Positions 1 through 39,063 of a stretch of DNA of 64,000 nucleotides are shown here, piece by piece (position 1 is the first letter of the stretch; each line of letters opens with the position of its first letter). The translations under genes and the position numbers were made by a program. The notes under the pieces are model-generated. The model worked only from the letters and a program-made list of their open reading frames with translations. It was not told the DNA's origin and ran no database searches. The DNA lies in the IMG/VR virus record IMGVR_UViG_3300027908_000004. One strand, 5' to 3'. The stretch is from a virus.

Positions 1-245
1 GTTACGTGTTCATGGGAGGGCACCAAACGTGCATCGGTGCCCGCATGGCAACCAAATTGGGCATAACTGAGTATAGCGCTCGGAAATACTTCGTGATGGG
101 GCAAAGCATCTCACATGGCCCTTATGAAAGCTTGTTCTTCCCACCCGGCAACCAAATCATCAATTGGTTTCTCCCGATTCGCAAGCGGGCAATCAGGGCC
201 ATCGACAGGTTCCTGGCTGGTGAGAAGCCCTGGGTGCGGGCATGA
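1..245 (+). CDS. hypothetical protein, C-terminal fragment (5' end probably outside window)
   Basis: Frame of ORF 6..245 is open to the left edge. Its stop overlaps the next start (ATGA at 242-245). Confidence 0.4.
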   Translation, partial: YVFMGGHQTCIGARMATKLGITEYSARKYFVMGQSISHGPYESLFFPPGNQIINWFLPIRKRAIRAIDRFLAGEKPWVRA

Positions 246-421
246 AGCCCGAACTGGACGCTTGCTGGCTGGAAGGCATACGTGCCTTTGAAAACGGGGT
301 GCCAAGAACCGACAACCCCTATTCATCCGGCCAGCGCACCACTGACAAAGCGGTGAATTGGTTTGGTGGTTGGGATATGGCCCAGATCATCATAGATTTT
401 AAGCCCAATCAGGCTGCCTAA
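242..421 (+). CDS. 59-aa Rmf/CrpP-like small protein
   Basis: Hand-translated ORF just under the 60-aa track cutoff: MKPELDACWLEGIRAFENGVPRTDNPYSSGQRTTDKAVNWFGGWDMAQ... The pattern G-x-x-A-x-x-x-G...NPY...W-x-GGW recalls ribosome modulation factor-type small proteins. ATGA coupling to the upstream ORF. Confidence 0.45.
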   Translation: MKPELDACWLEGIRAFENGVPRTDNPYSSGQRTTDKAVNWFGGWDMAQIIIDFKPNQAA

Positions 422-497
422 TGTTCCTACACTGCCCAGCCTAATCCGTTGGGCAGTAAGGAGCACTGGTGCTCCAATTCAACAGAAGGAGAAAGCT
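422..497 (+). repeat. early intergenic cassette, diverged copy (two hairpins plus RBS)
   Basis: After the stop: TGTTCCTACA. Hairpin 433-441/448-456 (CTGCCCAGC/GTTGGGCAG). Hairpin GGAGCA-CTGG-TGCTCC at 460-475. Then AACAGAAGGAGA before ATG 498. Confidence 0.6.
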
Positions 498-695
498 ATG
501 ATTAAAGTTAATTTCCAATGGTTGGCCGATACCAAGGGTGCGGTACGCTTCCAGGAGGTCGGTGACGATGGTCGCCCTAAGAAGTCAGACGCTGATGGGG
601 CTGTCATTGGCAGCCTCTATTTGCGCAAGGCCGCCCTCAAAGAGCTGGGCATCAGCAATCTGAAGGGCTTCACGGTCACGGTCACCGCTATCTGA
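498..695 (+). CDS. hypothetical protein (65 aa)
   Basis: ORF track entry. AAGGAG RBS 6 nt upstream. Flanked by cassette copies. Confidence 0.6.
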   Translation: MIKVNFQWLADTKGAVRFQEVGDDGRPKKSDADGAVIGSLYLRKAALKELGISNLKGFTVTVTAI

Positions 696-761
696 CGTCT
701 TACGCCCTGCCCCTAGCTAATCTGGGGGCAGTGGTGAGACGTTACTAAACAGGAGGAGAAC
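696..761 (+). repeat. early intergenic cassette, diverged copy
   Basis: Hairpin CTGCCCC 707-713 / GGGGCAG 725-731, extended by ACGTCT 695-700 / AGACGT 736-741. AACAGGAGGAGA at 748-759. Confidence 0.55.
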
Positions 762-1268
762 ATGACACTAACAATGATGCCCTATCTAGATAAGCTGAAG
801 CCTGTGCAGCAAGACTACATAGTTTGGTGCGTGAGGGAATTCAGTTTGAAACCTTACGGGCCGGACTTCCATAGGGGTTTGTTGCCGTTCCTTGCTGCTG
901 AAGAAGCCGCTTGGTATCTTGAATGCCGCAAACAGCAAATCGCAAGCGCCTATGGTTTTGTCTCAAGTGTGGGGGCCACTTCCACGTTGGACACCCTAAA
1001 GGGTACCCGATTCATAGAGTCCATCTTGGATGTGTTCCGGTTCGACCTTCCACGCGCTCCAGGGGCCAATCAAGTTATCTGGTTGAGTGATGAAAAACTA
1101 CGAAAAGCAAACAGGCGGCGGTATGCAGTCAAGATGACCATGAAACTGCCTGCGCTTAAAAATGAATTAGTGCAGTTGGAGCGCATCTCAAAAAACAATT
1201 GGAAAGTCACGGCATACAGGAATTTGCTGCCTCAAGCCCTAACAATACTTTCCGACCAATACGCCTGA
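762..1268 (+). CDS. hypothetical protein (168 aa)
   Basis: ORF track entry. Exact AACAGGAGGAGA RBS upstream. Confidence 0.65.
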   Translation: MTLTMMPYLDKLKPVQQDYIVWCVREFSLKPYGPDFHRGLLPFLAAEEAAWYLECRKQQIASAYGFVSSVGATSTLDTLKGTRFIESILDVFRFDLPRAPGANQVIWLSDEKLRKANRRRYAVKMTMKLPALKNELVQLERISKNNWKVTAYRNLLPQALTILSDQYA

Positions 1269-1338
1269 TGTTTCCACTCTGTAGCCTAACGGGCTACAGC
1301 AGGAAGCACCGATGCTTCACATGAACAGGAGGTAGATA
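1269..1338 (+). repeat. early intergenic cassette copy
   Basis: TGTTTCCACT after the stop. Hairpin CTGTAGCC 1279-1286 / GGCTACAG 1292-1299. Hairpin GAAGCA-CCGA-TGCTTC 1303-1318. Then AACAGGAGGTAGA. Confidence 0.65.
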
Positions 1339-1872
1339 ATGGCTAAGAAAGCCACGAGACGTTCTATCAAATCCAAAAAGGTCATCTTGCCCAAAAAGAT
1401 GTCCAAGCTGATAAAGGTCGCCTTACGTGACATGCGCAAGGCGGAAGCCAAGCCGGACAAATACGTAATCAACATGTCTGAGTGGTATAACCCAGACCAA
1501 ACCGTTGATTGTGTCCTGAGTGGTGATAACAACATTGTCATCGAGTCAAAGCCAGTCTGCGTAATGTGTGCCGCAGGGAGTGTCATGGCCTTCACACTGA
1601 AAGCCACGAAGGCTGCTGACGGCCCGGAACATTTTCCAGACAATGAACACCAATTGTCGGCCATCGATGATTTGCGATGTGGCCAAGTTGGGGCAGCGGC
1701 TGCTGAATTGGGATTGCATGAGACGGAGTGGGACGAAAGCACATGCTCCTACAAACCAAATCAGTTCGAGCGTTACAATACCCACATCCCTGAGTATGAC
1801 AGGGATAAGCCGGAACCTTTCCACAAAGCCATGGAAAAGCTCCAAGCCAAGCTTGAGAAAGCTGGGCTGTAA
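1339..1872 (+). CDS. hypothetical protein (177 aa)
   Basis: ORF track entry. RBS AGGAGG upstream. Overlapping track ORFs in other frames and on the other strand are shorter and lack an RBS. Confidence 0.65.
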   Translation: MAKKATRRSIKSKKVILPKKMSKLIKVALRDMRKAEAKPDKYVINMSEWYNPDQTVDCVLSGDNNIVIESKPVCVMCAAGSVMAFTLKATKAADGPEHFPDNEHQLSAIDDLRCGQVGAAAAELGLHETEWDESTCSYKPNQFERYNTHIPEYDRDKPEPFHKAMEKLQAKLEKAGL

Positions 1873-1874
1873 AT

Positions 1875-1942
1875 GTTTCTGTCCTGAGCCTTAACAAGGC
1901 TCAGTGAGAAGCATTTATGCTTCAAAACAGGAGGAGAAAACT
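1875..1942 (+). repeat. early intergenic cassette, canonical copy
   Basis: TGTTTCTGTCCTG 1875-1887. Hairpin CTGAGCC 1884-1890 / GGCTCAG 1898-1904. TGA. Hairpin GAAGCA-TTTA-TGCTTC 1908-1923. AACAGGAGGAGA 1926-1937. Confidence 0.75.
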
Positions 1943-2821
1943 ATGAGCAACTTAAACGAACGTGCAATGTTAAGCAGTCTTCACATATCGACCTGGTCAG
2001 GAATGATGATTGACCGGGCCGTGACAGACGAAGTCAATGAAAGCCACAAGGCAGCTAAGGATGCCGGGCGCTACAACAAGCGCTTGGTAGCCACCAAGTT
2101 CCTCAGTGGCATCTCACAAGCCCATAGCAATGCAAGGGCCGCCCACAGGCTTCTGACATTGCCGTGGGAGGATGACGGTACGCGCATTCTGGCAACCGTA
2201 GGCTACGAAGCCTACGTGCGCAAGATGCGTGAATGCCGCCTGAAGGCCGAAGCTGAAGTCAAGACCTTCTTGGAAAGCCCTGATGCCTATGTGCAGGAAG
2301 CCAAGCAGCGGCTGGCACAAATGTTCGACATCAATGACTACCCTGACACTTCCACGCTGGCCACCAAGTTCGGCTTTGACGTGGAAATCAAGCCGATGCC
2401 TGACGCGGCTGACTTCCGCGCCAAGCTGAGCGACGCCAGTGTGGCAGCCATCACCAAGGACATCGAAAGGCGCACCAATCAGCGCCTTGAAACGGCCATG
2501 AATGATGTCTTTAACCGGGTTGTAGAACTTGTAGGGCGCATGTCCAAGCGGTTACGTGACTATGTGCCACCCAAGGACGGCAACCGGGCGGAAGGCATCA
2601 TCCGTGATTCTGTGGTCTACGACATCAGCGAACTGGCAACGGAAGTGTTGCCAGTGCTGAACGTGACCGATGACCCACGGATAACCGCACTCCAGAAGCA
2701 ATTGCTGGACGAGCTGGTTGAGCACTCGCCTGAAATCTTGCGGGCGGATGCCAAGGTGCGGGCTGCTACGCTGAGCAAAGCAGATCGCCTGCTTAAAAAG
2801 GTCCAAGGATATTTAACGTGA
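1943..2821 (+). CDS. hypothetical protein (292 aa)
   Basis: Same frame as track ORF 1904..2821. The start was moved to ATG 1943 because the conserved RBS lies 5 nt upstream and the earlier start falls inside the cassette hairpins. Confidence 0.7.
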   Translation: MSNLNERAMLSSLHISTWSGMMIDRAVTDEVNESHKAAKDAGRYNKRLVATKFLSGISQAHSNARAAHRLLTLPWEDDGTRILATVGYEAYVRKMRECRLKAEAEVKTFLESPDAYVQEAKQRLAQMFDINDYPDTSTLATKFGFDVEIKPMPDAADFRAKLSDASVAAITKDIERRTNQRLETAMNDVFNRVVELVGRMSKRLRDYVPPKDGNRAEGIIRDSVVYDISELATEVLPVLNVTDDPRITALQKQLLDELVEHSPEILRADAKVRAATLSKADRLLKKVQGYLT

Positions 2822-2884
2822 GGCGGTTTATCCGGCGTCTCATGGCAGCTTGGAATCAACTACGTTGGTGGTGGGGCCATTGAA

Positions 2885-2969
2885 TGTTTCTGTCCTGCCC
2901 TAGTTAATTCTAGGGCAGTGAGAAGCATTACTGCTTCAGGGTCTATCAAACAGGAGGAGATAAGATAAA
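2885..2969 (+). repeat. early intergenic cassette, canonical copy
   Basis: TGTTTCTGTCCTG 2885-2897. Hairpin CTGCCCTAG 2895-2903 / CTAGGGCAG 2910-2918. TGA. Hairpin GAAGCA-TTAC-TGCTTC 2922-2937. AACAGGAGGAGA 2949-2960. Confidence 0.75.
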
Positions 2970-4007
2970 ATGAGCACTTCAACTACTACTGGAACTACGG
3001 CTGTCCGTACTGAAACAATCCAAGGTGCAAAAGAGCTGGCCAGGGTATATCGGGAAAAAGACATCCCGTTATACCTTCACAGCGCACCCGGCATTGGCAA
3101 GTCGGACATAATGCGGCAACTGGCTGCTGAGAGTGGTTCAGGCTTCATTGATATCCGCGTGGGTACCATGCTGCCTGAAGACCTCACTGGCATCCCGGTG
3201 CCTGATCTGGAGAAGCGGCTGGCGGTATGGCTGCGGGCTACGTTCTGGCCTGAAGTCAACCGAGATGGTGCCCACGGTATCATCGCGTTTGATGAATTGG
3301 CTGACGCCAACCGTCAACTGCAATCGTGCATCTACCGGGTTATCTTGGATCGTCAAATTGGCGATTACAAGTTGCCACCCGGTTGGTGGCCGATGGCTGC
3401 TGGCAACCGTAGGGAAGACCGGGCTGCGGCCCAGTCAATTTCTACGGCCCTAGCCAACAGGTTTGCCCACGTCCACGTCCGTGCTGATGACAAGGCATGG
3501 ACTGAGTGGGCTAATCTGAATGGCATCAGCCCGCTTCTGATTGGTTTCATCAAGTTCAGGCCCGGCCTCCTTCATTCAATGGAAGGGGCTGACTTGTTGG
3601 CGTTCCCATCACCACGTTCTTGGGCTAAGGCGTCCAAGGTGTTTGATATTGGTGACGCACATTTACGGTTCCGGCTGGTGGCTGGCATCGTAGGTGAGGG
3701 GGCGGCAACCGAGGTTGAGACCTTCTTCAAGGCGCTCGATCTGCCTGAAATTGAGGACATACTCAGGGATCCGCTCAAAACCCATATCCCTGATGATCCG
3801 GGTTCCCGCTATGCTTTGACCAGCTTGCTTGCCCGCAAGATGGACAAGGAAAACTTCCCGCAAATCTACAAATACATCAAGCGCGATGACTTCGGTGCCG
3901 ACTACAGCACCGTGGTGGTGCTTGATGCCACCAAGCGGGATAGCACCCTCTGTGAAACCAAAACCTTTGTTGATTGGGCAAAATCCAACAAAAGTCTCCG
4001 TCTTTAG
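2970..4007 (+). CDS. MoxR/CobS-like AAA+ ATPase
   Basis: Walker A SAPGIGKS and Walker B IIAFDELAD. Size (345 aa) and layout are typical of MoxR-class AAA_5 ATPases. Confidence 0.8.
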   Translation: MSTSTTTGTTAVRTETIQGAKELARVYREKDIPLYLHSAPGIGKSDIMRQLAAESGSGFIDIRVGTMLPEDLTGIPVPDLEKRLAVWLRATFWPEVNRDGAHGIIAFDELADANRQLQSCIYRVILDRQIGDYKLPPGWWPMAAGNRREDRAAAQSISTALANRFAHVHVRADDKAWTEWANLNGISPLLIGFIKFRPGLLHSMEGADLLAFPSPRSWAKASKVFDIGDAHLRFRLVAGIVGEGAATEVETFFKALDLPEIEDILRDPLKTHIPDDPGSRYALTSLLARKMDKENFPQIYKYIKRDDFGADYSTVVVLDATKRDSTLCETKTFVDWAKSNKSLRL

Positions 4008-4072
4008 CATTTCTGTCCTACGGCCTTACGGGGCCGTAGTGAGAAGCGCTAAGTTTCAAACAGGAGGAGAAA
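4008..4072 (+). repeat. early intergenic cassette copy
   Basis: CATTTCTGTCCTA. Hairpin CTACGGCC 4018-4025 / GGCCGTAG 4032-4039. TGAGAAGCG, with the second hairpin degenerate. AACAGGAGGAGA 4059-4070. Confidence 0.7.
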
Positions 4073-4243
4073 ATGAATGCACATAAATTAATGTGGTTAC
4101 AAATCTGTGCATGTGGGCTGTTAATACCCTCCATCGCAGTAAATGCGATCAACGGGGGTGTAGTCTGGTTAGGCGTAGACGTTATCCTATTTGCCGCAAA
4201 CGGAGCAATGGCGGTTGACAATTTCCGCAGGAGGCGGTCATGA
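4073..4243 (+). CDS. 56-aa small membrane protein (below ORF-track cutoff)
   Basis: Hand translation: MNAHKLMWLQICACGLLIPSIAVNAINGGVVWLGVDVILFAANGAMAVDNFRRRRS. Two hydrophobic segments. Canonical RBS 3 nt upstream of the ATG. The stop overlaps the next start (ATGA at 4240). Confidence 0.5.
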   Translation: MNAHKLMWLQICACGLLIPSIAVNAINGGVVWLGVDVILFAANGAMAVDNFRRRRS

Positions 4244-4584
4244 AGAAAGCCATTGAACGTGATCTGGCTGACCTCGTTGTCATCCTTGAAGATCTGACTG
4301 ACAGCATAGATGATATGCCTCAGGCAGATCTGATTGACATGGCAGCGCGGCTAAAGCCAGTCGCCAAAGCCTGCAAGGTGATTGACGAGTTCACCAAAGA
4401 ATTCGTCAAAAAGAAACTCAAAGGCAAGGGAGGGAGCGTCCCTGGTGCGTTGTTCAAGGCCAACCTGACCATCGTGCCAGTAGAACGGTTTCAGCAAAAA
4501 CTGTTCAAGGAGTCCGAGCCTGAAACCTACGCCGAATACACTAAAACTGATCAGGACCAAAGGGTCACCTTTGAAGTAAGATAA
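4240..4584 (+). CDS. hypothetical protein (114 aa)
   Basis: ORF track entry. RBS GCAGGAGG. Translationally coupled to the upstream small ORF. Confidence 0.6.
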   Translation: MKKAIERDLADLVVILEDLTDSIDDMPQADLIDMAARLKPVAKACKVIDEFTKEFVKKKLKGKGGSVPGALFKANLTIVPVERFQQKLFKESEPETYAEYTKTDQDQRVTFEVR

Positions 4585-4698
4585 ACCAATGCGGGTGTAA
4601 GTCGCTGCGTATCCTGAAATAGGGGTAGGCGTAGCCCGTCGCCGGAAGCAAGTTTGACCCACCTCTACTTCCGGCTCCCAATTCAACAGGAGGAGAAA

Positions 4699-5220
4699 AT
4701 GGCAACTGGAATTGAACTAATCCTTGGTGTTATGGGAAGATCCAAAATTGATGAAGTAGTCAAAGCCTTGGACCTTGCAATCACTTGGGATGAAAATGGG
4801 GCTGACCTACCCGAAACAACTATGGGGCACTACCTTGATAGGCGGCTCCAAACGGTCCATCAAGCCGCCCTTACCGAAGTGGGGCTGCATGTCGAACCAC
4901 CAAAAGACCCTATCTATGACTACCTTTTAGTCAAGGGGTTGGATGGGATAGCCCGCAAAACTGCAAGCTTCGGGTTGAGTCTTTACTACGATCCGTATGA
5001 AATGGGTGACGAGCCAGAAACCGCTGTCTTTGGGGTATCTCTGATCAGTAGGTACTTCCCAGTATTTCTTGATTGGCAAAAAGAAAGCGGTGGTTCAGGG
5101 GATACCATAGTCTTGGACCCTGAAACCCTAAAGCTGATTGAAATTGGCCGTCGCCACATTTCATCCGTCTTACCGTTCATTGAAACGGCTCCAATCATAG
5201 TAAAAGAACTGTTCTACTGA
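4699..5220 (+). CDS. hypothetical protein (173 aa)
   Basis: Same frame as track ORF 4654..5220. Start set at ATG 4699, directly after AACAGGAGGAGA (4685-4696). Confidence 0.65.
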   Translation: MATGIELILGVMGRSKIDEVVKALDLAITWDENGADLPETTMGHYLDRRLQTVHQAALTEVGLHVEPPKDPIYDYLLVKGLDGIARKTASFGLSLYYDPYEMGDEPETAVFGVSLISRYFPVFLDWQKESGGSGDTIVLDPETLKLIEIGRRHISSVLPFIETAPIIVKELFY

Positions 5221-5221
5221 G

Positions 5222-5288
5222 TGTTTCTGTCCTGCCCTAGCAATAGGGCAGTGAGAAGCACCTAGCTTCAAAACAGGAGGAGAGCAAT
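5222..5288 (+). repeat. early intergenic cassette, canonical copy
   Basis: TGTTTCTGTCCTG 5222-5234. Hairpin CTGCCCTA 5232-5239 / TAGGGCAG 5244-5251. TGA. Hairpin GAAGC-ACCTA-GCTTC 5255-5269. AACAGGAGGAGA 5272-5283. Confidence 0.75.
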
Positions 5289-6539
5289 ATGAGCAAGATA
5301 AAGGATAAAGCTGCGCGAGAGAAAGTTGTGGCTGCCCGAACAAATCTTTTAGTTTCGAATGGGTTTTTCGGGTTCCTTGCGTTACAACTACGCTTGGAGG
5401 AAGCCACTGACGTTGGCGGCCATGAGATACCCACCATGGGTGTGGACGGGGTTACCATATTCTACAACCCCACGTTCGTTCACTCTCTGAATGAACGGGA
5501 AATTGAAGCAGTAGAAGCGCATGAGGTAATGCACTGCTGTTTCAAACACTTTTCCCGCCGTGGCGATCGGGATCCTAAGCTGTGGAACATGGCTGGTGAT
5601 TACGTCATCAACAACGATCTCACAGCCTCGGGTTTCACCCTGCCGTGGAAGCCCTGCACTTTTGACATGTTGGTCAATTCCCGTGGCCAGTTGCCCAAAG
5701 GTGAAAAGTTTCATCTGGCTGATCCAGCGCTGGATGGGATGACCACTGAGGAAATCTATGACAAGCTGTACCAAAAGGCCACCAAAATCCAAATTCAAAT
5801 GGGTGACGGTGGTGATCCTGGCGGTTGCGGTGAAGTTCTGGATGCCCCCGGAGGGGCGGCGGGGCAGGAAGCTGCCAAGCAAACGTGGGAAACTGCGGTA
5901 CGGCAGGCGGTGGCTGTCGCAGCGGCCAACAATGCCGGGTCAATCCCCGGCAGCCTGAAGCGGCTGATTGATGATCTGAGCAAGCCCAAGGTTTCGTGGA
6001 AGGACCTGACGCGGGCCTTCATAGACCAAAGCCTGATCAAGGACATCAGTTGGTCACGGATCAGCCGTCGCAGCACTGCACTAGGGACGTTGTTGCCGGG
6101 CCTGATTTCTGACCGGCTCAACCATCTGGTCTTTGTGGTTGATACGTCAGGCAGTGTGGATGCCAAACTGCTCAACGAGTTCATGAGCGAGGTGGCTGGT
6201 GCATTGGATCAGGGCACTGCCGATCAGCTATCAGTTCTGTATGCTGATACCCGTGTTCATGACGTCGATGAGTTTGTACCGGGCGATCTGGTGACCGCCC
6301 GTGAGTTGTCAAACGGAGGGGGTGGTACTGATTTTGAAGACTCCTTCAAGTGGATCAAGGAGAAAATCCCTGATGCAAGTTGTGTCATCTACCTGACTGA
6401 CTTGCAGGTCTACAACTTTGGTGAGGACCCCGGTTGCCCGACCTTGTGGGCTGTGTTCGGGCCTTCATCCTACTACCCGCAGTTGGCTGACAAGGTGCCC
6501 TTCGGCACCCCAATACATGTATCTGGGGTCTACGAGTGA
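5289..6539 (+). CDS. VWA-domain protein with N-terminal HExxH metallopeptidase-like domain
   Basis: HEVMH motif (EAHEVMHCCFKH) in the N-terminal half. MIDAS-like DTSGS (VVDTSGSV) in the C-terminal half. This is the usual partner type for a MoxR ATPase. Confidence 0.75.
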   Translation: MSKIKDKAAREKVVAARTNLLVSNGFFGFLALQLRLEEATDVGGHEIPTMGVDGVTIFYNPTFVHSLNEREIEAVEAHEVMHCCFKHFSRRGDRDPKLWNMAGDYVINNDLTASGFTLPWKPCTFDMLVNSRGQLPKGEKFHLADPALDGMTTEEIYDKLYQKATKIQIQMGDGGDPGGCGEVLDAPGGAAGQEAAKQTWETAVRQAVAVAAANNAGSIPGSLKRLIDDLSKPKVSWKDLTRAFIDQSLIKDISWSRISRRSTALGTLLPGLISDRLNHLVFVVDTSGSVDAKLLNEFMSEVAGALDQGTADQLSVLYADTRVHDVDEFVPGDLVTARELSNGGGGTDFEDSFKWIKEKIPDASCVIYLTDLQVYNFGEDPGCPTLWAVFGPSSYYPQLADKVPFGTPIHVSGVYE

Positions 6540-6703
6540 ATTACACATGGCCGGGCAGGGTGCACATAATCGTGCACCCTCCCTACTATTATTTCACTCT
6601 GTGGGCTTTTGGACGCCGGTACCACAAAAGCAACATGACGTTCACGCCTTCCAGCCTTCGCGATTAGGCTGGAATGGTGAACGACATTTAACAGGAGGAG
6701 AAA

Positions 6704-7258
6704 ATGCACAATATTGCTAAACAGGCTGAATTGGCACAAGCGGCTATCGGTGGTGCCAAGCAATGGATTGAGGATCCCGATGCCACAAACGAGGGTATTT
6801 CTAAGGCCCTTGGTATAGCCAAGACTACAATGTCCCATGCCCGCATGATCCTTGAGTACGGGACAGCCATTGAACTGGTGGAAGTGACCAGCGGAAAAGT
6901 AGGTCTCGGGGCGGCAGCTAAAACCATACGTGCGCGGCTCAGCCCCGAGGATGTAAAAAAGGTCAAGATACGAAAAGCTGGCTGGAATAACCAGCGTCGT
7001 AAAAACCTTCAAAATGAATCTGTCATTTGGGTCAAACTTGGGGCAGCGTTATCCGCACTTACGGAGTTGCCAAGTCCAAAAGACGTTGTCCCCCTTGTAA
7101 AGAAAAACTATATGAGGGAAGTTACCACAAATCAGCACATCTATGCTGCATCAAACTGGATGGAGGAGTTTGTTCATGAATGGTCAAGATACCAGTCCGC
7201 AAAATCTGCGAAAAATACTTCTGACTCCGGAGGAAGCGACGCGGCTTCTGGAGCATAA
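6704..7258 (+). CDS. hypothetical protein with HTH-like segment (184 aa)
   Basis: ORF track entry. Exact AACAGGAGGAGA at 6690-6701. The segment ISKALGIAKTTMSHARMIL looks like a helix-turn-helix. Confidence 0.55.
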   Translation: MHNIAKQAELAQAAIGGAKQWIEDPDATNEGISKALGIAKTTMSHARMILEYGTAIELVEVTSGKVGLGAAAKTIRARLSPEDVKKVKIRKAGWNNQRRKNLQNESVIWVKLGAALSALTELPSPKDVVPLVKKNYMREVTTNQHIYAASNWMEEFVHEWSRYQSAKSAKNTSDSGGSDAASGA

Positions 7259-8021
7259 TACGCTGAATAGACCGTTGAGCGATCAGCACGTCAAGCGAAT
7301 TGCCGGTCAGATCATCGACGGCAAATGGAAGTTCAACGGCGACACCATCAAAATATCTAGTGATGGTGGGGTGCTGGATGGCCAGCACCGGCTTTGGGCT
7401 GTGGTGGAGTCAAAAATTTCAATTGAAACCATCATTGTCAGGGGTATTGCCCGTGATGCCTTTGCCACCATTGACACACTGCGCAAGCCCCGCAGCGGGG
7501 CTGACGTGCTGGCCCTTAGTGGTGCCACGCGGCACCGTGCTATCACATCAGCGGCCTTGCAATGGCTGTTGCGGTACCAGCGCGGCATACTTGAAACCTA
7601 CAGCAAGCCCATCAACAAGATTGAAAACTCAGACATTGAATCTATGTTTGAGAACAATCCTGGCATTGAACGTGCCGTGGCTCGCGTCATGGGGTTGCGG
7701 GGGCTGGCTAACCCCTCACTGGTCGGTTTCTTCTACTACATACTGACCAACCGGAGCCCTGAACTGGCTGAGCGGATGGTGTTCACGCTGGAAAACCCAG
7801 CAGGGGTATCCATCACCGACCCGTTCTTCAGGCTGAGGATGTACTTCTCAAGTGATCATCTGAAGCGCAAGGACCCGGTAGTGACCATTGCCTTGATGGT
7901 GAAAGCGGCGAACGCTGCCTACCACAATCAGGAAATCAAGGCATTGGTCTGGAGAAATCAGGGGGCTTCACCTGAGAAGTTCCCCAAACTGGAGGTTGCC
8001 TCATCGGGCAGCCCAATATGA
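7176..8021 (+). CDS. ParB-like nuclease domain (DGQHR-type) protein
   Basis: Motif LDGQHRLWAV. Start moved to ATG 7176, which has GGAGGAG 8 nt upstream. The 3' end of the previous gene overlaps it. Confidence 0.65.
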   Translation: MNGQDTSPQNLRKILLTPEEATRLLEHNTLNRPLSDQHVKRIAGQIIDGKWKFNGDTIKISSDGGVLDGQHRLWAVVESKISIETIIVRGIARDAFATIDTLRKPRSGADVLALSGATRHRAITSAALQWLLRYQRGILETYSKPINKIENSDIESMFENNPGIERAVARVMGLRGLANPSLVGFFYYILTNRSPELAERMVFTLENPAGVSITDPFFRLRMYFSSDHLKRKDPVVTIALMVKAANAAYHNQEIKALVWRNQGASPEKFPKLEVASSGSPI

Positions 8022-8036
8022 GAGGAGAAGTGAACT

Positions 8037-8393
8037 ATGTTATGGAAAATTGAGTATATTGTGGAAGGCAAGCACCTTGAGAAGGCGTTGGAAGCCGTAG
8101 CTGGGATTGCACTCAATATGCAGCCCCCGCAACCCGTCACCAATGGGATTGTGCGGGAAAAGACGGTCAAACAAGCCAAGGAGTCGGTTGCACAACACAA
8201 TCAAGTCCGTGAGCGCCTGATGCAGTGGGGCAAGAAGCCGGGTGACATCATTGCAAGTGGCGTAGTGCGTAACGCGATGCAGGAACTTGGCTTTTCACAC
8301 AATAACTACAGTTCCATCATCACCAATCTCAAGAAACAGAACTACTTGACCACAACTGAACGACGTGGCCAATTGCGGCTCCTTGACCATTAA
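8037..8393 (+). CDS. hypothetical protein (118 aa)
   Basis: ORF track entry. RBS GAGAGGAGAAG upstream. Confidence 0.55.
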   Translation: MLWKIEYIVEGKHLEKALEAVAGIALNMQPPQPVTNGIVREKTVKQAKESVAQHNQVRERLMQWGKKPGDIIASGVVRNAMQELGFSHNNYSSIITNLKKQNYLTTTERRGQLRLLDH

Positions 8394-8402
8394 GCTTTTC
8401 GG

Positions 8403-8467
8403 CAGAGACTGGTATATCCAGTCTCTAGCGAAGTGCTTTAGACACTTCTTAACAGGAGAACTATTAC
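8403..8467 (+). repeat. early intergenic cassette, diverged copy
   Basis: Hairpin AGAGACTGG 8404-8412 / CCAGTCTCT 8418-8426. Hairpin GAAGTG 8430-8435 / CACTTC 8443-8448. Then TTAACAGGAGAA. Confidence 0.55.
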
Positions 8468-8746
8468 ATGCCTCGTGGATTTATTAGGTACAAGGCCTAC
8501 CCCTTCCAGGAGAAGGACCCCATCCTTAGTGTTCTGTGGGCCATCAAGCGGAACCAGAAAATCAAGGACAGCGAGATCAAAGCCGCTGGAGGCCCGGCTA
8601 CGGGTACCCTGCGCAATTGGTGGCCGGATGGAAAAACCCGCAGGCCGCAGTTCGCTACAGTAGCGGCGGCTGCTATCGCCATGGGGCTGTCAGATTTGCC
8701 CATTACTTCTGAGGGCAGGCAGAAACTGAAAAATAAGTTCGGCTAG
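8468..8746 (+). CDS. hypothetical protein (92 aa)
   Basis: ORF track entry, preceded by a cassette copy. Confidence 0.55.
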   Translation: MPRGFIRYKAYPFQEKDPILSVLWAIKRNQKIKDSEIKAAGGPATGTLRNWWPDGKTRRPQFATVAAAAIAMGLSDLPITSEGRQKLKNKFG

Positions 8747-8849
8747 ACAAACGAACCCTTCTTGACAGAAGGGTTCCCACCCACTAGCAGAAACTCTGTT
8801 AGATACCACCGCATCCTATAGAAAGGATGCCAACAGTAGAGCAGAGTTT

Positions 8850-9293
8850 ATGGCAGACGTAGTAACAGAAGTTGAAGAGAGCCGCCCGGCCAAACCCAAG
8901 CGGGCGGCTAAGGCTAACGGGCAAGCCCCTGTAAAGGCCGCTGGTAAGGGTGCAGCCAAAACAGTCAAGGCTAAGGCTGGCGCTGAAAACGCACCCAAGG
9001 CCACGGCAAGCCCAGCAAAAGGCATGTCAAAGGCTAAGGGTACCAAAGCCAAGCCTAAAATGGTTGAAAAGGACCAATTTGGCTTACGCAAGGGGAGTAC
9101 CAAGTCACGGGCTGCAATGCTCTATGCCCGCAAATCAGGCGCTACCCTAGCGGAAGTCAAAAACGTGCTCGGTACCGTGCAGCTTAACGTCCTTGTTGGG
9201 CTGGAAGCTGATGGTTACCGGGTAACCCGTGAGTCTGAAAAGCGGGATGGCAAACGCCCCGTCACCCGCTACAGGCTTTTCCCCAAAACCTGA
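8850..9293 (+). CDS. Lys/Ala-rich histone-H1-like DNA-binding protein (147 aa)
   Basis: The N-terminal 70 aa are AKP-rich low complexity (KPKRAAKANGQAPVKAAGKGAAKTVKAKAG...). The C-terminal part is globular. An intrinsic terminator follows the gene. Confidence 0.5.
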   Translation: MADVVTEVEESRPAKPKRAAKANGQAPVKAAGKGAAKTVKAKAGAENAPKATASPAKGMSKAKGTKAKPKMVEKDQFGLRKGSTKSRAAMLYARKSGATLAEVKNVLGTVQLNVLVGLEADGYRVTRESEKRDGKRPVTRYRLFPKT

Positions 9294-9343
9294 TTGGATG
9301 GCGTCTTGGGCACCTGCGTGCAGGTTCCTACGTCCATCTGATA

Positions 9344-9384
9344 CCCCGCCGCACCTGCCCGGTAGCGGCGGGGTTTTTGTCTTT
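9344..9384 (+). terminator. rho-independent terminator
   Basis: Stem CCCCGCCGC 9344-9352 / GCGGCGGGG 9365-9373, followed by TTTTTGTCTTT. Confidence 0.65.
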
Positions 9385-9394
9385 GGAGGCTGCA

Positions 9395-9631
9395 ATGGCC
9401 ATTGGGTTCCGTCTTAGGTTACAAGATTGGTATAAGGAAGGAAAGCCTCTTCCCGGATATGAATACATGAATGGCGGCCCATACCTTGCTTGGTTATTGG
9501 GCAAATCCAAAAGCCCATCACACTATGATGTAGGGGATTTCCCCCTGCTTGAAGAAAGCAATCCAGCCTTGGAAGGGCCAAACGGCTGGACGGTGCTCCA
9601 AATGCTAATTGCCAGAAAGGGCTTAAAATGA
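9395..9631 (+). CDS. small protein, GPNG-tail paralog family
   Basis: ATG 9395 has GGAGG 6 nt upstream. C-terminal LEGPNGWTVLQMLIARKG matches the family tail. Confidence 0.55.
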   Translation: MAIGFRLRLQDWYKEGKPLPGYEYMNGGPYLAWLLGKSKSPSHYDVGDFPLLEESNPALEGPNGWTVLQMLIARKGLK

Positions 9632-9972
9632 AGGAAATAAGAGGGCGGCAGCACGTGTCGCACCGTAAAAGCAACCCCGCAGGAGGAAGCGTTGGCCTTC
9701 CTGACTTCCATACGTGGAAGGAGAGGGATACCTATTTTGCTGAGCACGCTGAGTATTTCACAACTGTGAAAAAAGATGGTGTCGGCCATTACGACCGCGA
9801 TGATCATAAAACGCTTGCGCAGGCTGAGGCCGCCGTTAAACTTAAGCAAAACGTAGGAGGGGGAAATTATTTGATCTATGCGGTCATAGGAGAACAGTCA
9901 GCTTTGGTCAAACCCATGCCTTACCAACCTAAGAGGGACAATGCCCAAACCAGCCAACATACTGATACATGA
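9628..9972 (+). CDS. hypothetical protein (114 aa)
   Basis: ORF track entry. ATGA overlap with the upstream gene. Confidence 0.5.
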   Translation: MKEIRGRQHVSHRKSNPAGGSVGLPDFHTWKERDTYFAEHAEYFTTVKKDGVGHYDRDDHKTLAQAEAAVKLKQNVGGGNYLIYAVIGEQSALVKPMPYQPKRDNAQTSQHTDT

Positions 9973-10147
9973 ATTTGATCCAGCCATCCAATCTGTTACA
10001 GATGATGATGGTGATGAAGTTCTAGGGTTCTACTATGAGTTCATAGATGAAAATGAAACCCCAATTGGCTACATGATTGGCCCCTACAGGGACGGCCCTT
10101 CTGCTGAAAAGGCTGCCCTGAGGGCATGGAAATTGAACGACTTCTAA
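9941..10147 (+). CDS. hypothetical acidic protein (68 aa)
   Basis: ORF track entry. Overlaps the upstream gene by 32 nt. Only a weak resemblance to the family tail (MIGPYRDGPSAEKAALRAWK). Confidence 0.4.
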   Translation: MPKPANILIHEFDPAIQSVTDDDGDEVLGFYYEFIDENETPIGYMIGPYRDGPSAEKAALRAWKLNDF

Positions 10148-10372
10148 AGTTCCGTTTGACTTCTGAAAATGCTTTAACCTACCGTGCGCTGGCTCGGGTG
10201 TAACAAAGGGTGATCTCCTCACAGCCGTGGTAGCAACGGGTGAATAATTCAAGGGAAGTTTCGGGGCTTTGTTACACAAAGGGCAATCATCCCTGTGAAA
10301 ACTTCCAAGCTATCGATTTGACGCCGCTATAAGCCCCCAAATTCCCCCTTGGGGCCTGCCGCGTCGAAGAGC

Positions 10373-10420
10373 GGGCCGTTGAGTTTAGGATCTCCTCCTG
10401 TTTCTCAACGGCCCGTACTT
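10373..10420 (+). ncRNA. hairpin with anti-RBS loop in the tRNA leader (candidate regulatory RNA element)
   Basis: Stem GGGCCGTTGAG 10373-10383 / CTCAACGGCCC 10404-10414. The 20-nt loop contains TCTCCTCCTGTT (10391-10402). Followed by GTACTTTTTCC, and the tRNA starts at 10429. Confidence 0.4.
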
Positions 10421-10428
10421 TTTCCATT

Positions 10429-10505
10429 GCACCCATAGCTCAACTGGATAGAGCAGTGGATTTCTAATCCACAGGTTGCTGGTTCGAATCCATCTGGGTG
10501 CGCCA
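10429..10505 (+). tRNA. tRNA-Arg (anticodon UCU), CCA encoded
   Basis: Manual cloverleaf: acceptor GCACCCA/TGGGTGC, D stem GCTC/GAGC, anticodon stem GTGGA/TCCAC with loop TTTCTAA, T arm GCTGG-TTCGAAT-CCATC (one C-T mismatch), discriminator G, CCA. Confidence 0.85.
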
Positions 10506-10522
10506 CCATAGAGGAACATCAC

Positions 10523-10849
10523 ATGCACAGACACGGTGAAGCAGCCGAGATAATTCTGGCTGCACAAAAACTCAAACAAGGGCACCACAAGAAGGTGTTG
10601 GGGGCTCTCTATGAAACAGCCCATGACAACGTGTATGTCGGCTTTGCGCGGCTGATGGACATAACCGGCTTTGATCGGGCGCTCGTCCGCAGGACAGTGC
10701 GTTTGCTGGCCCGTAGAGGGCTGGCTGAATACAGCAACGGGCTGTTTCATGACGACGGCACCGTAGCAGGGTCAGGGTACGCCATCACCATTCGGGGTAT
10801 AGATGTGTGGGAAATCCTAGAAGAGGGGCCAAACAATGCCCGTGATTGA
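10523..10849 (+). CDS. winged-helix-like DNA-binding protein (108 aa)
   Basis: ORF track entry. The segment ITGFDRALVRRTVRLLARRGLAEYS resembles a MarR/wHTH recognition region. Confidence 0.5.
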   Translation: MHRHGEAAEIILAAQKLKQGHHKKVLGALYETAHDNVYVGFARLMDITGFDRALVRRTVRLLARRGLAEYSNGLFHDDGTVAGSGYAITIRGIDVWEILEEGPNNARD

Positions 10850-11114
10850 TTACCCTACTTTTGAACGCGCAGGTAACAATTGGGATAAAGCTTGGGGAAT
10901 AGCCTGTGGTTATGTTTCGTGGGGTGGGCTATCCGGTAATGCAAACGGGCTTACCTACTTCTTGGGTGCCAATCCGCAAGCGCTAAAATGGGCTGATGTC
11001 GGACGTACCCTTGTTGAACTGCCTAATGAAGAAGTAAAGCGGAAGATGGAACTTCTTGCTGGCCCATACTACGAGACCATCATTAAGGCGTGGAAGGCCA
11101 TTCACGTCAAATAA
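10836..11114 (+). CDS. small protein, GPNG-tail family (diverged tail)
   Basis: C-terminal LLAGPYYETIIKAWKAIH. Confidence 0.5.
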   Translation: MPVIDYPTFERAGNNWDKAWGIACGYVSWGGLSGNANGLTYFLGANPQALKWADVGRTLVELPNEEVKRKMELLAGPYYETIIKAWKAIHVK

Positions 11115-11126
11115 GAGGAGCTAGAA

Positions 11127-11459
11127 ATGACCAAGATTTTGTATTCGCCGGGCTACGGTGCTGGATGGTCGACTTGGATGAGTGGTAGCCAGGAATTCAT
11201 CAAATGGGCATTGACCTATCAGCCCATAATTGACGCCTTAGAACGGGGCGAAAAGTTAAATCCTGAAGCTAAAAAGAAGCATCCGGCACTCGTTCGATTC
11301 CTCAAAGAATCGAAGGAGAAGTTTGGGGTCAAAGATCCCTACTTGGGCGGGGCAGGCCAACTCCAAGTCTACGAAGTTTCCGGTCCATTCAGGATAGATG
11401 AATATGACGGACGCGAGTCGGTCATTGAGGCCTCCCAAGAGGCCTACATTAGCATCTGA
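11127..11459 (+). CDS. hypothetical protein (110 aa)
   Basis: ORF track entry. RBS GAGGAG upstream. Confidence 0.55.
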   Translation: MTKILYSPGYGAGWSTWMSGSQEFIKWALTYQPIIDALERGEKLNPEAKKKHPALVRFLKESKEKFGVKDPYLGGAGQLQVYEVSGPFRIDEYDGRESVIEASQEAYISI

Positions 11460-11500
11460 CTAGTTCAAATAAGAACTGTTTGAAATCTTTGAATTTGTCA

Positions 11501-11543
11501 GTTACAAAGGAAAAAGGCCGCCCCAGCGTGAACCGGAGCGGCC
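11501..11543 (-). terminator. rho-independent terminator oriented for minus-strand transcripts
   Basis: Stem GGCCGC 11516-11521 / GCGGCC 11538-11543. On the minus strand the stem is followed by TTTTTCCTTTGT. There is no T-run on the plus-strand side. Confidence 0.5.
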
Positions 11544-11877
11544 TGTCAGAATACTTGTTCAGAGCAAGATTCTGGAATTCGCTGCTGCCGCAGCTAGGGA
11601 TTGAATAACCCAACCTTCGGCGCACGTCCAGAGCCTTCTGAAGCAAATATGCTGGCCATAGCCAGCTCGTTGTATGAGCCGACACCATGGGCAAGACCGT
11701 GGGTGCAAGCGCGGAAGGGCATCCGTCAGTAAAACTCAAGGCTTCGCGCTGTGAAGCGCCAGTTGCCAGGAGAAGGCTCCGGGTTGCCCCGTCCTTCAGG
11801 CAGTTACTTCCACGATGGTTCTTGGAAGTAGCACACGCCAGCGCCAGTGCGAGACATGCCGCCAGCCAGACCCCGGC

Positions 11878-11893
11878 CACTTCCTAGGAAGTG
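11878..11893. promoter_or_regulatory. perfect 16-bp palindrome, candidate operator
   Basis: CACTTCCTAGGAAGTG. The same ACTTCC/GGAAGT half-sites recur as TACTTCCA-N10-TGGAAGTA at 11805-11830. Confidence 0.35.
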
Positions 11894-12050
11894 TAATGTT
11901 CTTGAACCATCAACCCGGCTCCGTTGTTCATGCCGTATTAGCTTCTGCTCTAGGGATTTCTGTTCTACTAAGAAGTCCCTAGCTAAAGCTATTCCCTCAC
12001 CGTTGTTCATGCTATATATCAATGTTCTCTGCTGTTTCTGGGTATTTCTA

Positions 12051-12230
12051 ATGAAAAAACAGGAAATGAAGGCATTAACCGAACAATGGCTGGCTAAACA
12101 TGATCCAATTAAGAAATTTAAACAATCTCCACGCTATAAGAACCGTCAGAAGCAGAAATTAGGCTGGATAAAGGCTTCTAAACAGAAGAAATACCAAGAT
12201 TTGGTTCTTAGACGGAAAGGTCTGAAATAA
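12051..12230 (+). CDS. 59-aa highly basic protein (uncertain)
   Basis: Distal part of track ORF 11847..12230, starting at ATG 12051 (MKKQEMKALTEQWLAKHDP...). No clear SD sequence. Confidence 0.35.
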   Translation: MKKQEMKALTEQWLAKHDPIKKFKQSPRYKNRQKQKLGWIKASKQKKYQDLVLRRKGLK

Positions 12231-12231
12231 A

Positions 12232-12432
12232 ATGAGAACTAAAGAAGGTTATAAGCCATGTGTTTGTGTGTTGTGCACCAAACTACGTGCAATCCCTGGG
12301 ATAGAACTAAACCAGGAGCTGGAAGATTCCATTGCTGAATTTCTGAACCGGAAAGGTTTGGCAGGCGCAGATGGCTACGCACTTCCATTGGTTCTGGCAT
12401 ATCTCATCAACCTTGGACACGGACCCAAATGA
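12232..12432 (+). CDS. GPNG-tail family, CxCxxC subtype
   Basis: N-terminal PCVCVLC. Diverged tail LAGADGYALPLVLAYLINLG. Confidence 0.6.
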   Translation: MRTKEGYKPCVCVLCTKLRAIPGIELNQELEDSIAEFLNRKGLAGADGYALPLVLAYLINLGHGPK

Positions 12433-12626
12433 ATCCAGATAAAGAAATACCCAAATTTGTATATGGATGTGAGTGCGTTTGGTGCCTAGTAACCAGGGAT
12501 TTGGGGTTAACCGAGGACGAGTTGCATCACTTAATTGCTGAAGATAGAGGGTTCTTGGAGAGGTTGGCGGGGCCTAATGGCCACACACTTCTTCAAATCT
12601 ACAGAATCAGGAAAGGAAAAACCTAA
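12429..12626 (+). CDS. GPNG-tail family, CxCxxC subtype
   Basis: GCECVWC. Tail LAGPNGHTLLQIYRIRKG. ATGA overlap with the upstream gene. Confidence 0.65.
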   Translation: MNPDKEIPKFVYGCECVWCLVTRDLGLTEDELHHLIAEDRGFLERLAGPNGHTLLQIYRIRKGKT

Positions 12627-23405: not shown

Positions 23406-23807
23406 ATGACTAAGACTATCACTATGCCTAAAATCGAAACTGAGAAACTGTTTCAGGATTTAAGCAAACCTTCGTTGCACGTACTGAGCTACGCTCTTAG
23501 GCACCCGGATACGTGGCCTGAGGGATTTAACTGGAATTTTGATAATTGCAGGGAGTGTGCAATGGGGCTCGCACATAGATTGTGGGCTTCAATCCCTGAA
23601 GCCAAAAACACCGCCACGTGCTCAACCGGCCCTTCAATAATGGGCCGCGCCTTCGCCATGCCGTATGAAACGGCCCGAGACATATTTATGGGCGAGGGGG
23701 AGTGGACCAGAACGGGCCTTATCTTCAAGACCCAAATTGACTTCAAAAAGGTCACACCTGAAATGGTGGCCGATCAGATCGACAAATACCTAGAGACAGT
23801 CGAGTAA
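23406..23807 (+). CDS. hypothetical protein (133 aa)
   Basis: ORF track entry. RBS AGGAGAAG upstream. Confidence 0.6.
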   Translation: MTKTITMPKIETEKLFQDLSKPSLHVLSYALRHPDTWPEGFNWNFDNCRECAMGLAHRLWASIPEAKNTATCSTGPSIMGRAFAMPYETARDIFMGEGEWTRTGLIFKTQIDFKKVTPEMVADQIDKYLETVE

Positions 23808-38582: not shown

Positions 38583-38601
38583 AGTACGGCCCGCTGACCA
38601 G

Positions 38602-39063
38602 ATGCCCCAAGAAAAGGTGGATCTCCTTGTTGAACTTTTTCAAAAGGGGTATAGCTACGGGCACATAGCCAAGGAAATTGGCAAAACACGAAATGCGGTA
38701 GCAGGACAAGTTTTCAAACTCCGTAAACGGGGGGTGATTTTGGAAAACAGGCCGCCAGCTATTATCAGGGTAAAGAAAGCTAAGGAAAGGGCCGCACCCA
38801 AAACTAGGGTAAGGCTAACCCCCACTACTGTCCCCGAGCAACCAGAACCAAAGAGAGTACGTTTACAATTGATTGAGAGCCCCACAGCAGTGACGTTTGG
38901 GGAACTAGCCCCGCATCACTGCAAGTTCCCTATTGGTGACCCACGCCGTTCAGACTTCAGGTTTTGCGGTGGGCAGAGGCTTGCCAATAAGCCGTATTGT
39001 GCCGAACACGTAAAACTGACTGAGCAGCCTACGCTAGTCAGACTTCGCGCCTCTAGGTATTGA
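38602..39063 (+). CDS. gcrA: GcrA-like cell-cycle regulator
   Basis: N-terminal KVDLLVELFQKGYSYGHIAKEIGKTRNAVAGQVFKLR and C-terminal HHCKFPIGDPRRSDFRFCGGQRLANKPYCAEH match the two conserved GcrA blocks. Start set at ATG 38602, after the sbcC stop. Confidence 0.8.
   Translation: MPQEKVDLLVELFQKGYSYGHIAKEIGKTRNAVAGQVFKLRKRGVILENRPPAIIRVKKAKERAAPKTRVRLTPTTVPEQPEPKRVRLQLIESPTAVTFGELAPHHCKFPIGDPRRSDFRFCGGQRLANKPYCAEHVKLTEQPTLVRLRASRY

Follow-up and report, generated by a model that had tools for sequence, protein, structure and literature searches.

A stop-to-start RNA element with two competing helices between the early genes of uncultivated soil phages

What do the spacers between the early genes of a phage do when nearly all of them look alike? 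The question is raised by a stretch of viral DNA of 64,000 nucleotides (nt), IMG/VR record IMGVR_UViG_3300027908_000004, whose full length is called the window here. Positions 1-9.3 kb hold a plus-strand gene run of a phage, in which almost all translation units are separated by a spacer of 65-90 nt between the stop codon and the next ATG. An earlier note on this DNA had described eight of these spacers as one stop-to-start cassette with a first hairpin, a TGA, and a second hairpin. It was found that the cassette is one bipartite RNA hairpin with an alternative pairing, and that all three helices covary.

The minimum-free-energy folds of the eight copies each gave a single bipartite hairpin of -25 to -35 kcal/mol, with folding z-scores of -2.9 to -5.7 against dinucleotide shuffles. 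P1, the outer stem, has 9 bp; it is formed by the conserved left flank AUGUUUCU (UGUUUCU), which overlaps the upstream stop codon, and by AGAAGCAU (AGAAGCA). The inner stem (P2), which is the first hairpin of the earlier note, sits atop P1; it is 8-9 bp long, variable in sequence, and mostly capped by a tetraloop. A conserved 3x2 internal loop, GUC/UG, separates the two stems, so that the whole hairpin has 17-18 bp. The length of P2 is 8-9 bp in 72 of the 83 copies compared, the internal loop is exactly GUC/UG in 46 of them, and the sequence round this loop is conserved beyond the needs of pairing. The apical loop is a tetraloop in 54 of the 83, including UACG in 20 copies and GCAA in 9; UNCG and GNRA are stable tetraloop classes of structured RNA. 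Of 73 copies that could be assessed, 61 have the first base of the upstream stop codon in alignment column 1 or 2, so that its last 1-2 bases form the base of P1.

The third helix (P3), the second hairpin of the earlier note, pairs GAAGCA with a downstream UGCUUC and draws on the middle strand AGAAGC of P1. Since both helices use this strand, P1 and P3 are mutually exclusive. The left arm UGUUUC and the right arm UGCUUC are near-repeats, each complementary to the middle strand, and the sequence 3′ of P1 reads CA, UA, or UU followed by GCUUCAA. P3 has a loop of 4-8 nt, mostly 5-6, and ends 2-10 nt (usually 2-3) before a 12-nt ribosome-binding tag, AACAGGAGGAGA, which occurs 9 times against 0.23 expected. 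Both pairings of the earlier note are real, but the outer stem had been missed, the second hairpin competes with it, and P3 is absent from two copies in the window (693-758 and 6635-6700) and from a few relatives.

How many copies are there? A covariance model with the P1 and P2 structure was built from 24 copies and run over the whole window with the filters off; its E-values are rough. It gave 8 strong copies (E 4e-19 to 9e-6), all on the plus strand and confined to 0.4-8.5 kb, that is, to one gene class, the early genes. No copy was found by the model among the replication or structural genes of the 64-kb window; the rest of the 64 kb has no score above 13.2 bits, and the reverse strand none above 11.7 bits. 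The eight cassettes of the earlier note are all there, seven with strong scores and the eighth with a weak score and the same fold. The count was incomplete, as a ninth had been missed. The copies are as follows.

419-500, plus strand: cassette 1, a diverged copy running from TAA (419-421) to ATG (498-500); model match 418-491, 31.6 bits, E 1e-6; fold -32.7 kcal/mol, z -4.5; the three strands are altered together (UGUUCCU, AGGAGCA, and UGCUCC), a triple covariation.
693-764, plus strand: cassette 2, from TGA (693-695) to ATG (762-764); model match 693-758, 28.3 bits; fold -34.5 kcal/mol, z -5.7; the outer stem is wholly different, ACGUCUUAC with GUGAGACGU, and P3 is lacking.
1266-1341, plus strand: cassette 3; model match 1265-1328, 38.4 bits; fold z -3.4; P1 is UGUUUCC with GGAAGCA, and P3 is present.
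1870-1945, plus strand: cassette 4, the canonical copy; model match 1870-1936, 77.8 bits, E 4e-19; fold -27.5 kcal/mol, z -4.9; TAA 1870-1872, P1 5′ arm 1872-1880, internal loop GUC 1881-1883, P2 1884-1904, internal loop UG 1905-1906, shared middle strand AGAAGCAUU 1907-1915, P3 formed by 1908-1913 with 1918-1923, tag AACAGGAGGAGA 1926-1937, ATG 1943-1945.
2882-2972, plus strand: cassette 5; model match 2881-2959, 48.1 bits; fold z -3.5; preceded by an open reading frame (ORF) of 21 codons (2819-2884), and with a longer spacer to the ribosome-binding site than usual.
4005-4075, plus strand: cassette 6; model match 4004-4069, 72.9 bits; fold z -2.9; covarying P1 base (AGCA...GCGCU type) and a weakened P3 (GAAGC with GUUUC).
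5218-5291, plus strand: cassette 7; model match 5218-5282, 72.8 bits; fold z -3.7.
6635-6706, plus strand: cassette 9, the copy missed by the earlier note; model match 6635-6700, 32.7 bits, E 6e-7; fold of 6537-6686 z -6.1; P1 is CGUUCAC with GUGAACG, P2 is UUCCAGCC with GGCUGGAA, P3 is lacking, the tag and an ATG (6704-6706) follow, and the copy takes up the 3′ part of a 164-nt spacer.
8391-8470, plus strand: cassette 8, the most diverged copy; same fold architecture, -28.3 kcal/mol, z -4.3; weak model match at 8391-8461, 11.4 bits, E 0.32; P1 is GCUUUUCG with CGAAGUGCUU, P2 is AGAGACUGG with CCAGUCUCU, P3 is GAAGUG with CACUUC, and the ribosome-binding site is weaker.
4585-4701, plus strand: a degenerate relative with the exact tag AACAGGAGGAGA at 4685-4696 before the ATG at 4699; the upstream structure is different (hairpin GCCGGAAG...CUUCCGGC), the fold is no better than that of shuffles (z -0.4), and the model matches the tag part only (13.2 bits).

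The 21-codon ORF before cassette 5 has a GTG start that overlaps the stop of the preceding gene, which encodes a 292-amino-acid (aa) protein, and its TGA (2882-2884) stands at the usual position of a cassette stop. This ORF may be a very small gene, or what is left of one that was lost, with the stop-to-P1 register kept. The intergenic part just upstream of cassette 9 (6540-6634, GGGUGCAC...GUGCACCC) has a very strong fold of its own (z -6.1), as has another intergenic region at 8747-8849 (GAACCCUUCU...AGAAGGGUUC, z -6.7), where a long outer helix surrounds a second hairpin. Neither is a cassette copy.

Is the element found beyond this phage? A protein search of viral contigs with the VWA protein gave no relatives; a search with the two conserved flanks as a DNA pattern succeeded instead and gave 13 stretches in 9 contigs of 11-94 kb. 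The covariance-model scan of the window and related genomes, a check that the earlier note had proposed, gave 87 copies at E < 5e-5 in the window and 12 viral loci, 79 of them beyond the window. A stricter 23-base pattern found 82 stretches in metagenomes, where about 2 are expected by chance on a rough estimate, and the 80 metagenome loci hold 288 copies at E < 1e-5; some of these loci are the same contigs as the viral loci. On the other hand, no cassette was detected by the model in a bacterial DNA control of about 600 kb from 80 loci (best E 0.003). These control loci came from a loose 18-base flank pattern with 119 single matches, about 300 being expected by chance, and they give no clue to the host. 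At permissive thresholds, Rfam matched only the tRNA and no cassette family. In cultured-phage records, the 72-nt consensus cassette had no match by blastn, and window positions 1-9000 had no DNA match by megablast. The cassette is a real, widespread, undescribed RNA element of uncultivated soil phages.

Does selection act on its structure? Pairs were counted in the 87 copies, from 10 genomes, which were treated as independent though many of them are related. The alignment was fitted to P1 and P2 and favours both, while P3 lies outside the model and is free of that bias. P1 is paired in 95.2% of cells, with changes on both sides at 7 of its 9 pairs. For P2, the figure is 99.7%, with two-sided changes at all 8 pairs and up to five pair types per position; for P3, it is 96.7%, with two-sided changes at 3 of the 4 core pairs. 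When the partner columns were slid by 1-3 positions, pairing fell to 35-57%. The three strands change together: TTTCT/AGAAG/CTTC is found in 39 copies and TTTCG/CGAAG/CTTC in 12, and further triple variants are TTCAC/GTGAG/CTCA, TTCCT/AGGAG/CTCC, TTCTA/TAGAG/CTCT, TTTCT/AGAAA/TTTC, and TTGAC/GTGAA/TTCA. Therefore, both alternative pairings are kept by selection.

RNAalifold alone recovered P2 and only the top 3 bp of P1; the remaining P1 pairs rest on the explicit pair counts, which come from the alignment fitted to that structure. In 127 distinct best copies from the metagenomes, P2 is 99.9% paired and covaries at all 8 pairs. The earlier note had read selection on structure from first-hairpin stems that differ in every copy yet stay complementary. 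Both the complementarity and the selection were confirmed by the covariation in the 87 copies and in the metagenome copies, except that the stems do not always differ; those of cassettes 5 and 7 are near-identical (CTGCCCTAG vs CTGCCCTA).

Is the structure one of RNA or of DNA? G·U is found in 17 cells of P2 and A·C in 1, and a U·G in P1 is conserved in 66 copies. Since G·U pairs, which would be mismatches on the other strand, far outnumber A·C, and since UACG and GCAA tetraloops predominate, it is a structure of the sense-strand RNA rather than of the DNA. That selection acts on RNA structure is shown by the compensatory changes and holds strongly.

The same asymmetry bears on a transcription signal, which the earlier note had listed in a phage-specific form. 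The cassette would then be a promoter or terminator for the host or a phage RNA polymerase, possibly a DNA-hairpin promoter as in N4. It is a repeated hairpin in an early region, and the MoxR-type ATPase of this early region has its best database relatives in N4-like phages (30-33% identity). However, the template strand would have A·C mismatches in place of the G·U pairs, a scan of the ORFs showed no RNA polymerase gene, and the cassettes have neither a U-tract nor a -35/-10 match, which makes a transcription signal scarcely credible. The sequence GAAGC...GCTTC, which I took to be like the N4 early promoter hairpin, was considered and the idea rejected. The N4 promoter for the virion RNA polymerase is a template-strand DNA hairpin of 5-7 bp with a 3-nt loop, and N4 has a giant gene for this polymerase. 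The largest ORF in the 64-kb window has 862 aa and encodes a DNA polymerase, hence there is no giant virion polymerase; the cassette is sense-strand RNA, and the loops of P3 are longer than 3 nt. A further point against the N4 idea is that the replication and tail genes differ: its clamp, clamp loader, and tail fibres set this phage apart from N4.

A scan of positions 1-12500 called no cassette terminator-like, as no U-tract follows the hairpins, in line with the view of the earlier note that these are not classical intrinsic terminators. In the same scan, no sigma-70-like promoter was found in any cassette hairpin; one candidate (6688-6715) overlaps the tag and start codon of cassette 9. Promoter-like sites in these 12.5 kb number 4 against 9.6 expected from shuffles. 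Since the cassette hairpins lack such signals and promoter-like sites are few, the early region reads as one long transcript that needs processing.

Which of the two competing helices is the default? The P1-enforced state is on average 4.6 kcal/mol more stable than the P3-enforced state, and P1 is therefore taken as the default. In the free ensemble, P1 has a probability of 0.81 and P3 of 0.13; blocking of the left arm brings P3 to 0.78. The same block opens the GGAGG core of the ribosome-binding site: its predicted probability of being unpaired is 0.40 at first, 0.61 with the left arm blocked, and 0.62 after a cut 5′ of AGAAG (Wilcoxon p 1e-10). As long as P1 is formed, the ribosome-binding site is predicted to pair mainly with the right arm (0.35 of pairing), through a helix of 4 bp that includes a G·U. 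Shuffling of the sequence upstream of the ribosome-binding site costs the stretch between right arm and start codon only 0.5 kcal/mol of stability, and the native energy is the lower one in only 54 of 78 copies. Since it is barely better than shuffled sequence, right-arm masking is not used as strong evidence.

What, then, is the function? From this analysis, RNase III-type processing with 5′-end stabilisation fits best among the roles proposed in the earlier note. I tentatively favour, at a little under an even chance, the reading that the cassette acts in cis on the polycistronic early mRNA, as an RNase III-type site of processing and stabilisation. The nuclease, the cut, and the refolding that I infer would work as follows. 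In the default fold, P1, the internal loop, and P2 make about two turns of imperfect double helix, and such a helix is the shape recognised by the host RNase III at the early intercistronic sites of T7. The double-strand-specific endonuclease of the host would cut P1 and P2 at or near the internal loop and separate the cistrons. P2 would stay on the upstream message as a hairpin at its 3′ end and bar 3′ exonucleases. AGAAGC, now free, would re-pair with the downstream UGCUUC into P3, a 5′-terminal hairpin 1-2 bases from the new end and just before the tag. P3 would shield the downstream message from 5′-end-dependent decay, for which a 5′-terminal hairpin of this kind is a known recipe, and would keep the ribosome-binding site open. 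This reading explains why there are three helices, why the helix length is constrained and the loop conserved, and why internal promoters are lacking. The predicted opening of the ribosome-binding site after a cut 5′ of AGAAG also speaks for it.

How far does the likeness to T7 go? The T7 early intercistronic regions R0.3, R0.5, R1, R1.1, and R1.3 were folded with the same tool as the cassettes. The folds of R0.3 and R0.5 consist of a lower stem, an internal loop, and an upper stem; in R0.5, the stop codon lies inside the lower stem (UGAUAG/UUAUCA). In all five sites, the upper stem is conserved at its base (AAGGUC/GGCCUU) and variable at its apex; R0.3 and R1.1 have GCAA loops, and the ribosome-binding site is some 20 nt further downstream. 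R1.1 is a 60-nt RNA with an asymmetric 4/5 internal loop, which RNase III cuts on the 3′ side into 47 and 13 nt (PMC6121014). Cassettes and T7 sites are both hairpins that recur between the cistrons of one long early transcript; their lower stem begins at or overlaps the stop codon upstream, their internal loop is asymmetric, their upper stem has a conserved base under a variable apex, and their tetraloops are stable. The cassettes all lie on one strand, each between a stop codon and the next start. In both, the ribosome-binding site and start codon lie about 20-30 nt downstream. In contrast, the cassette flanks are unrelated to the ACUCAAGGUC...GGCCUUUAUGAUU of T7, and there is no sequence likeness; the internal loop of the cassettes is 3x2 and not 4x5. 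Cassettes number about ten or more per genome and stand before almost every early translation unit, and an identical 12-nt ribosome-binding tag follows each. They have a covarying third strand in P3, none being apparent in the T7 folds, where no specific search for one was made. Cleavage of the cassettes is only predicted.

Several points weigh against RNase III processing. The host is probably an alphaproteobacterium, and for at least one alphaproteobacterial RNase III, that of S. meliloti, a requirement for longer double-stranded substrates than those of its E. coli counterpart has been reported (PMC6121014). No likeness in sequence or model to described RNase III sites was found, Rfam being empty in this respect. 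P3 is not essential to the core, because two copies in the window and a few relatives lack it. Moreover, RNase III does not require the tight placement of the stop codon, which fits a switch operated by the ribosome at least as well.

Could the terminating ribosome itself run such a switch, coupling the translation of neighbouring genes? A ribosome at the upstream stop codon would melt the 5′ arm of P1, with P2 folded at its leading edge, and AGAAGC would move into P3. P3 would free the ribosome-binding site of the pyrimidine-rich right arm and compact the spacer, so that the next cistron starts after full reading of the previous one; without upstream translation, P1 would re-form and the right arm would partly mask the site. 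A ribosome covers 12-13 nt 3′ of the A-site codon, as known from toeprinting, and with the observed stop register the 9-nt P1 arm and the 3-nt loop fill this footprint, P2 coming directly after. The mutual exclusivity of P1 and P3, both covarying, and the predicted response of P3 and the ribosome-binding site to a blocked left arm are also as such a switch would have them. Its logic would be the four-segment attenuation of ermC, triggered by a terminating rather than a stalled ribosome. As in ermC, segment 1:2 and 2:3 pairings are exclusive, the ribosome on segment 1 decides (here through the stop codon at the base of P1), and the last segment carries the ribosome-binding site. The cassettes differ from ermC in having no leader peptide or drug-dependent stall, the trigger being the ribosome that ends the previous gene, in the weakness of the 3:4 helix, in the insertion of P2 between segments 1 and 2, and in their many uses per genome.

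However, the GGAGGAG site should out-compete the weak masking helix, copies without P3 exist (693-758 and 6635-6700), and the constrained length of P2 and the conserved internal loop are left unexplained. Nor is the stop placement proof of coupling, because the stop codon of T7 R0.5 also lies in the lower stem. I regard the coupling switch as unlikely, though a serious contender. It can coexist with RNase III processing. Extended to the whole genome, it would be a ribosome relay of bistable RNAs, in which each terminating ribosome flips P1 to P3 and licenses the next gene, and the early class is translated strictly in series. This is a more doubtful proposal still. If it is true, RNase III cutting, should it occur, would lock the units in the on state.

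Does the long hairpin need the rest of the cassette? In one related contig (L008), a perfect P1 and P2 at 5096-5141 is found without P3, the tag, or a following start codon, and a TTGACT-containing stretch is next to it. This shows that the long hairpin can stand alone, and it may mark the end of a transcription unit. Such a copy suits a passive stability element that needs no specific cut. P1 and P2 would be a barrier to 3′-to-5′ exonucleases, as REP-type intercistronic hairpins are, and would insulate the cistrons from misfolding, with P3 as a fallback. Very stable hairpins with UNCG or GNRA tetraloops between nearly all early cistrons would also serve this purpose. A passive barrier leaves unexplained the conservation of the flanks and of the internal loop (GUC/UG in 46/83), the constrained helix length, and the covariation of P3, and I consider it quite improbable.

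The cassettes may also be looked at as DNA. In the relatives, the core early gene order is kept and the small genes between the cassettes vary. In related contigs, 25.4% of interior similarity ends lie within 20 nt of a cassette against 6.5% (standard deviation 1.7) for random positions; these controls are random positions and not ordinary gene boundaries, and the variable P2 can itself end an alignment. In one relative (L005), an identical inner stem is found in the three cassettes at 7953-8016, 8421-8483, and 9274-9336, and another is shared by 8861-8923 and 10428-10490. The shared stems stand before different genes, and their identity suggests that one cassette was copied from another or altered by gene conversion. 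Linkers of about 60 bp would thus be homology patches for swapping, inserting, and deleting early-gene cassettes. The earlier note had compared them with the PeSL elements of T4-type phages, which have a strong sigma-70-like promoter (-35, -10, and AT-rich upstream sequence) and a terminating stem-loop (PMC2839356). Cassettes and PeSLs alike are conserved linkers from stop to start with a Shine-Dalgarno site and a stem-loop, and both flank small genes of unknown function in a variable early region, where the gene content between linkers differs among relatives; similarity also appears to end preferentially beside the cassettes. The comparison fails on the defining sigma-70-type promoter, since the cassettes have no promoter match in their hairpins; nor do they have a terminator tail, and they show pairing at the RNA level with alternative folds. 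Recombination needs no compensatory changes, G·U bias, or RNA tetraloops. Because selection is at the RNA level, recombination is not taken as the main function, a role that is highly improbable for it; it is more likely a side effect of the linkers.

What of the tag? The closest parallel for a tag before the start codon is SAS/ESAS. The SAS of Cluster K mycobacteriophages is a 13-bp tag, GGGATAGGAGCCC, 3-7 bp before start codons; it is asymmetric, holds the Shine-Dalgarno core, and occurs about 11-19 times per genome at non-structural genes in one orientation (PMC3203893). About half of the SAS copies, the ESAS, have an upstream imperfect inverted repeat (17-bp) with a variable spacer, whose departures from the repeat do not support RNA pairing, so that the authors favour DNA-binding proteins (PMC3203893). 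The position of the cassette tag is analogous, while its sequence, AACAGGAGGAGA, differs from that of SAS, and the helices of the cassettes, unlike the ESAS repeat, are paired in 95-99.9% of cells with many double changes.

A hairpin outside the cassettes, at 10371-10415 on the plus strand (GGGCCGUUGAG...CUCAACGGCCC), has the loop UCUCCUCCUGUU, the exact complement of the 12-nt tag; the tag is accordingly matched on the minus strand at 10391-10402. The hairpin has a ACTTTTTCC tail (a T-run) on its 3′ side and lies just before a tRNA-Arg (10429-10505). If expressed, it could pair with every cassette, and the whole class could be silenced at once by this RNA, because each unit has the same tag. 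The cassette might also be a place where an RNA-binding factor of the phage or the host docks by recognising the conserved internal loop and flanks (a translational repressor, anti-termination factor, or chaperone), or a platform on which the anti-tag hairpin RNA shuts off the early class. Besides the anti-tag loop, the restriction to one gene class and the conservation round the internal loop in excess of pairing needs are consistent with docking. Against it, no candidate protein came from Pfam and PHROG searches of the early proteins or from structure models, and docking is very unlikely as the main role. The searches, in which a nuclease or RNA binder was sought, gave no function for the conserved early proteins. 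The 292-aa early protein (1943-2821) has homologues in all relatives (L004, L005, L008, L009, L010, and L013), with 58-68% identity in the closer ones. Its AlphaFold model is confident and mostly helical (pLDDT 79, pTM 0.70), and had no fold match in the PDB (best E 0.3). The model of a 177-aa early protein is poor (pLDDT 61).

Which host does the phage infect? Beyond the early region, the window has genes for DnaB, a primase, a family A polymerase with a clamp and clamp loader, SbcCD, tail proteins, and an amidase. A homologue of the cell-cycle regulator GcrA lies at 38551-39063, at the end of the replication module (Pfam E 3e-29), and an N6/N4 DNA methylase at 23807-24706. Because of the GcrA homologue, together with the methylase, the host is probably an alphaproteobacterium, as judged from gene content. 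The 59-aa ORF directly before cassette 1 (242-421) has a Pfam match to RMF (ribosome modulation factor) at 25.4 bits, under the cut-off of 27.9. If ribosome-directed, an RMF-like early protein would be of interest beside a translation-linked RNA element.

What does the element mean for these phages? The copies, which number in the hundreds, make up a new and very well supported RNA family; all three of its helices covary, and it has neither an Rfam entry nor a cultured relative. Intercistronic processing and stability are functions of a known type; what is new is the three-strand design. With this element, phages that lack recognisable internal promoters could obtain separate, stable messages from a long early operon. 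The unusual part is the covarying alternative pairing, which would turn an endonuclease cut into a protective 5′ hairpin, or couple termination to initiation. T7 R1.1 already serves as an insulator in synthetic operons, and either mechanism, if true, would make the cassette an insulator between the genes of such operons. The cassettes and the anti-tag hairpin together offer a testable on/off control of a whole phage gene class, and the covariance model marks early-gene boundaries in contigs of uncultivated soil phages.

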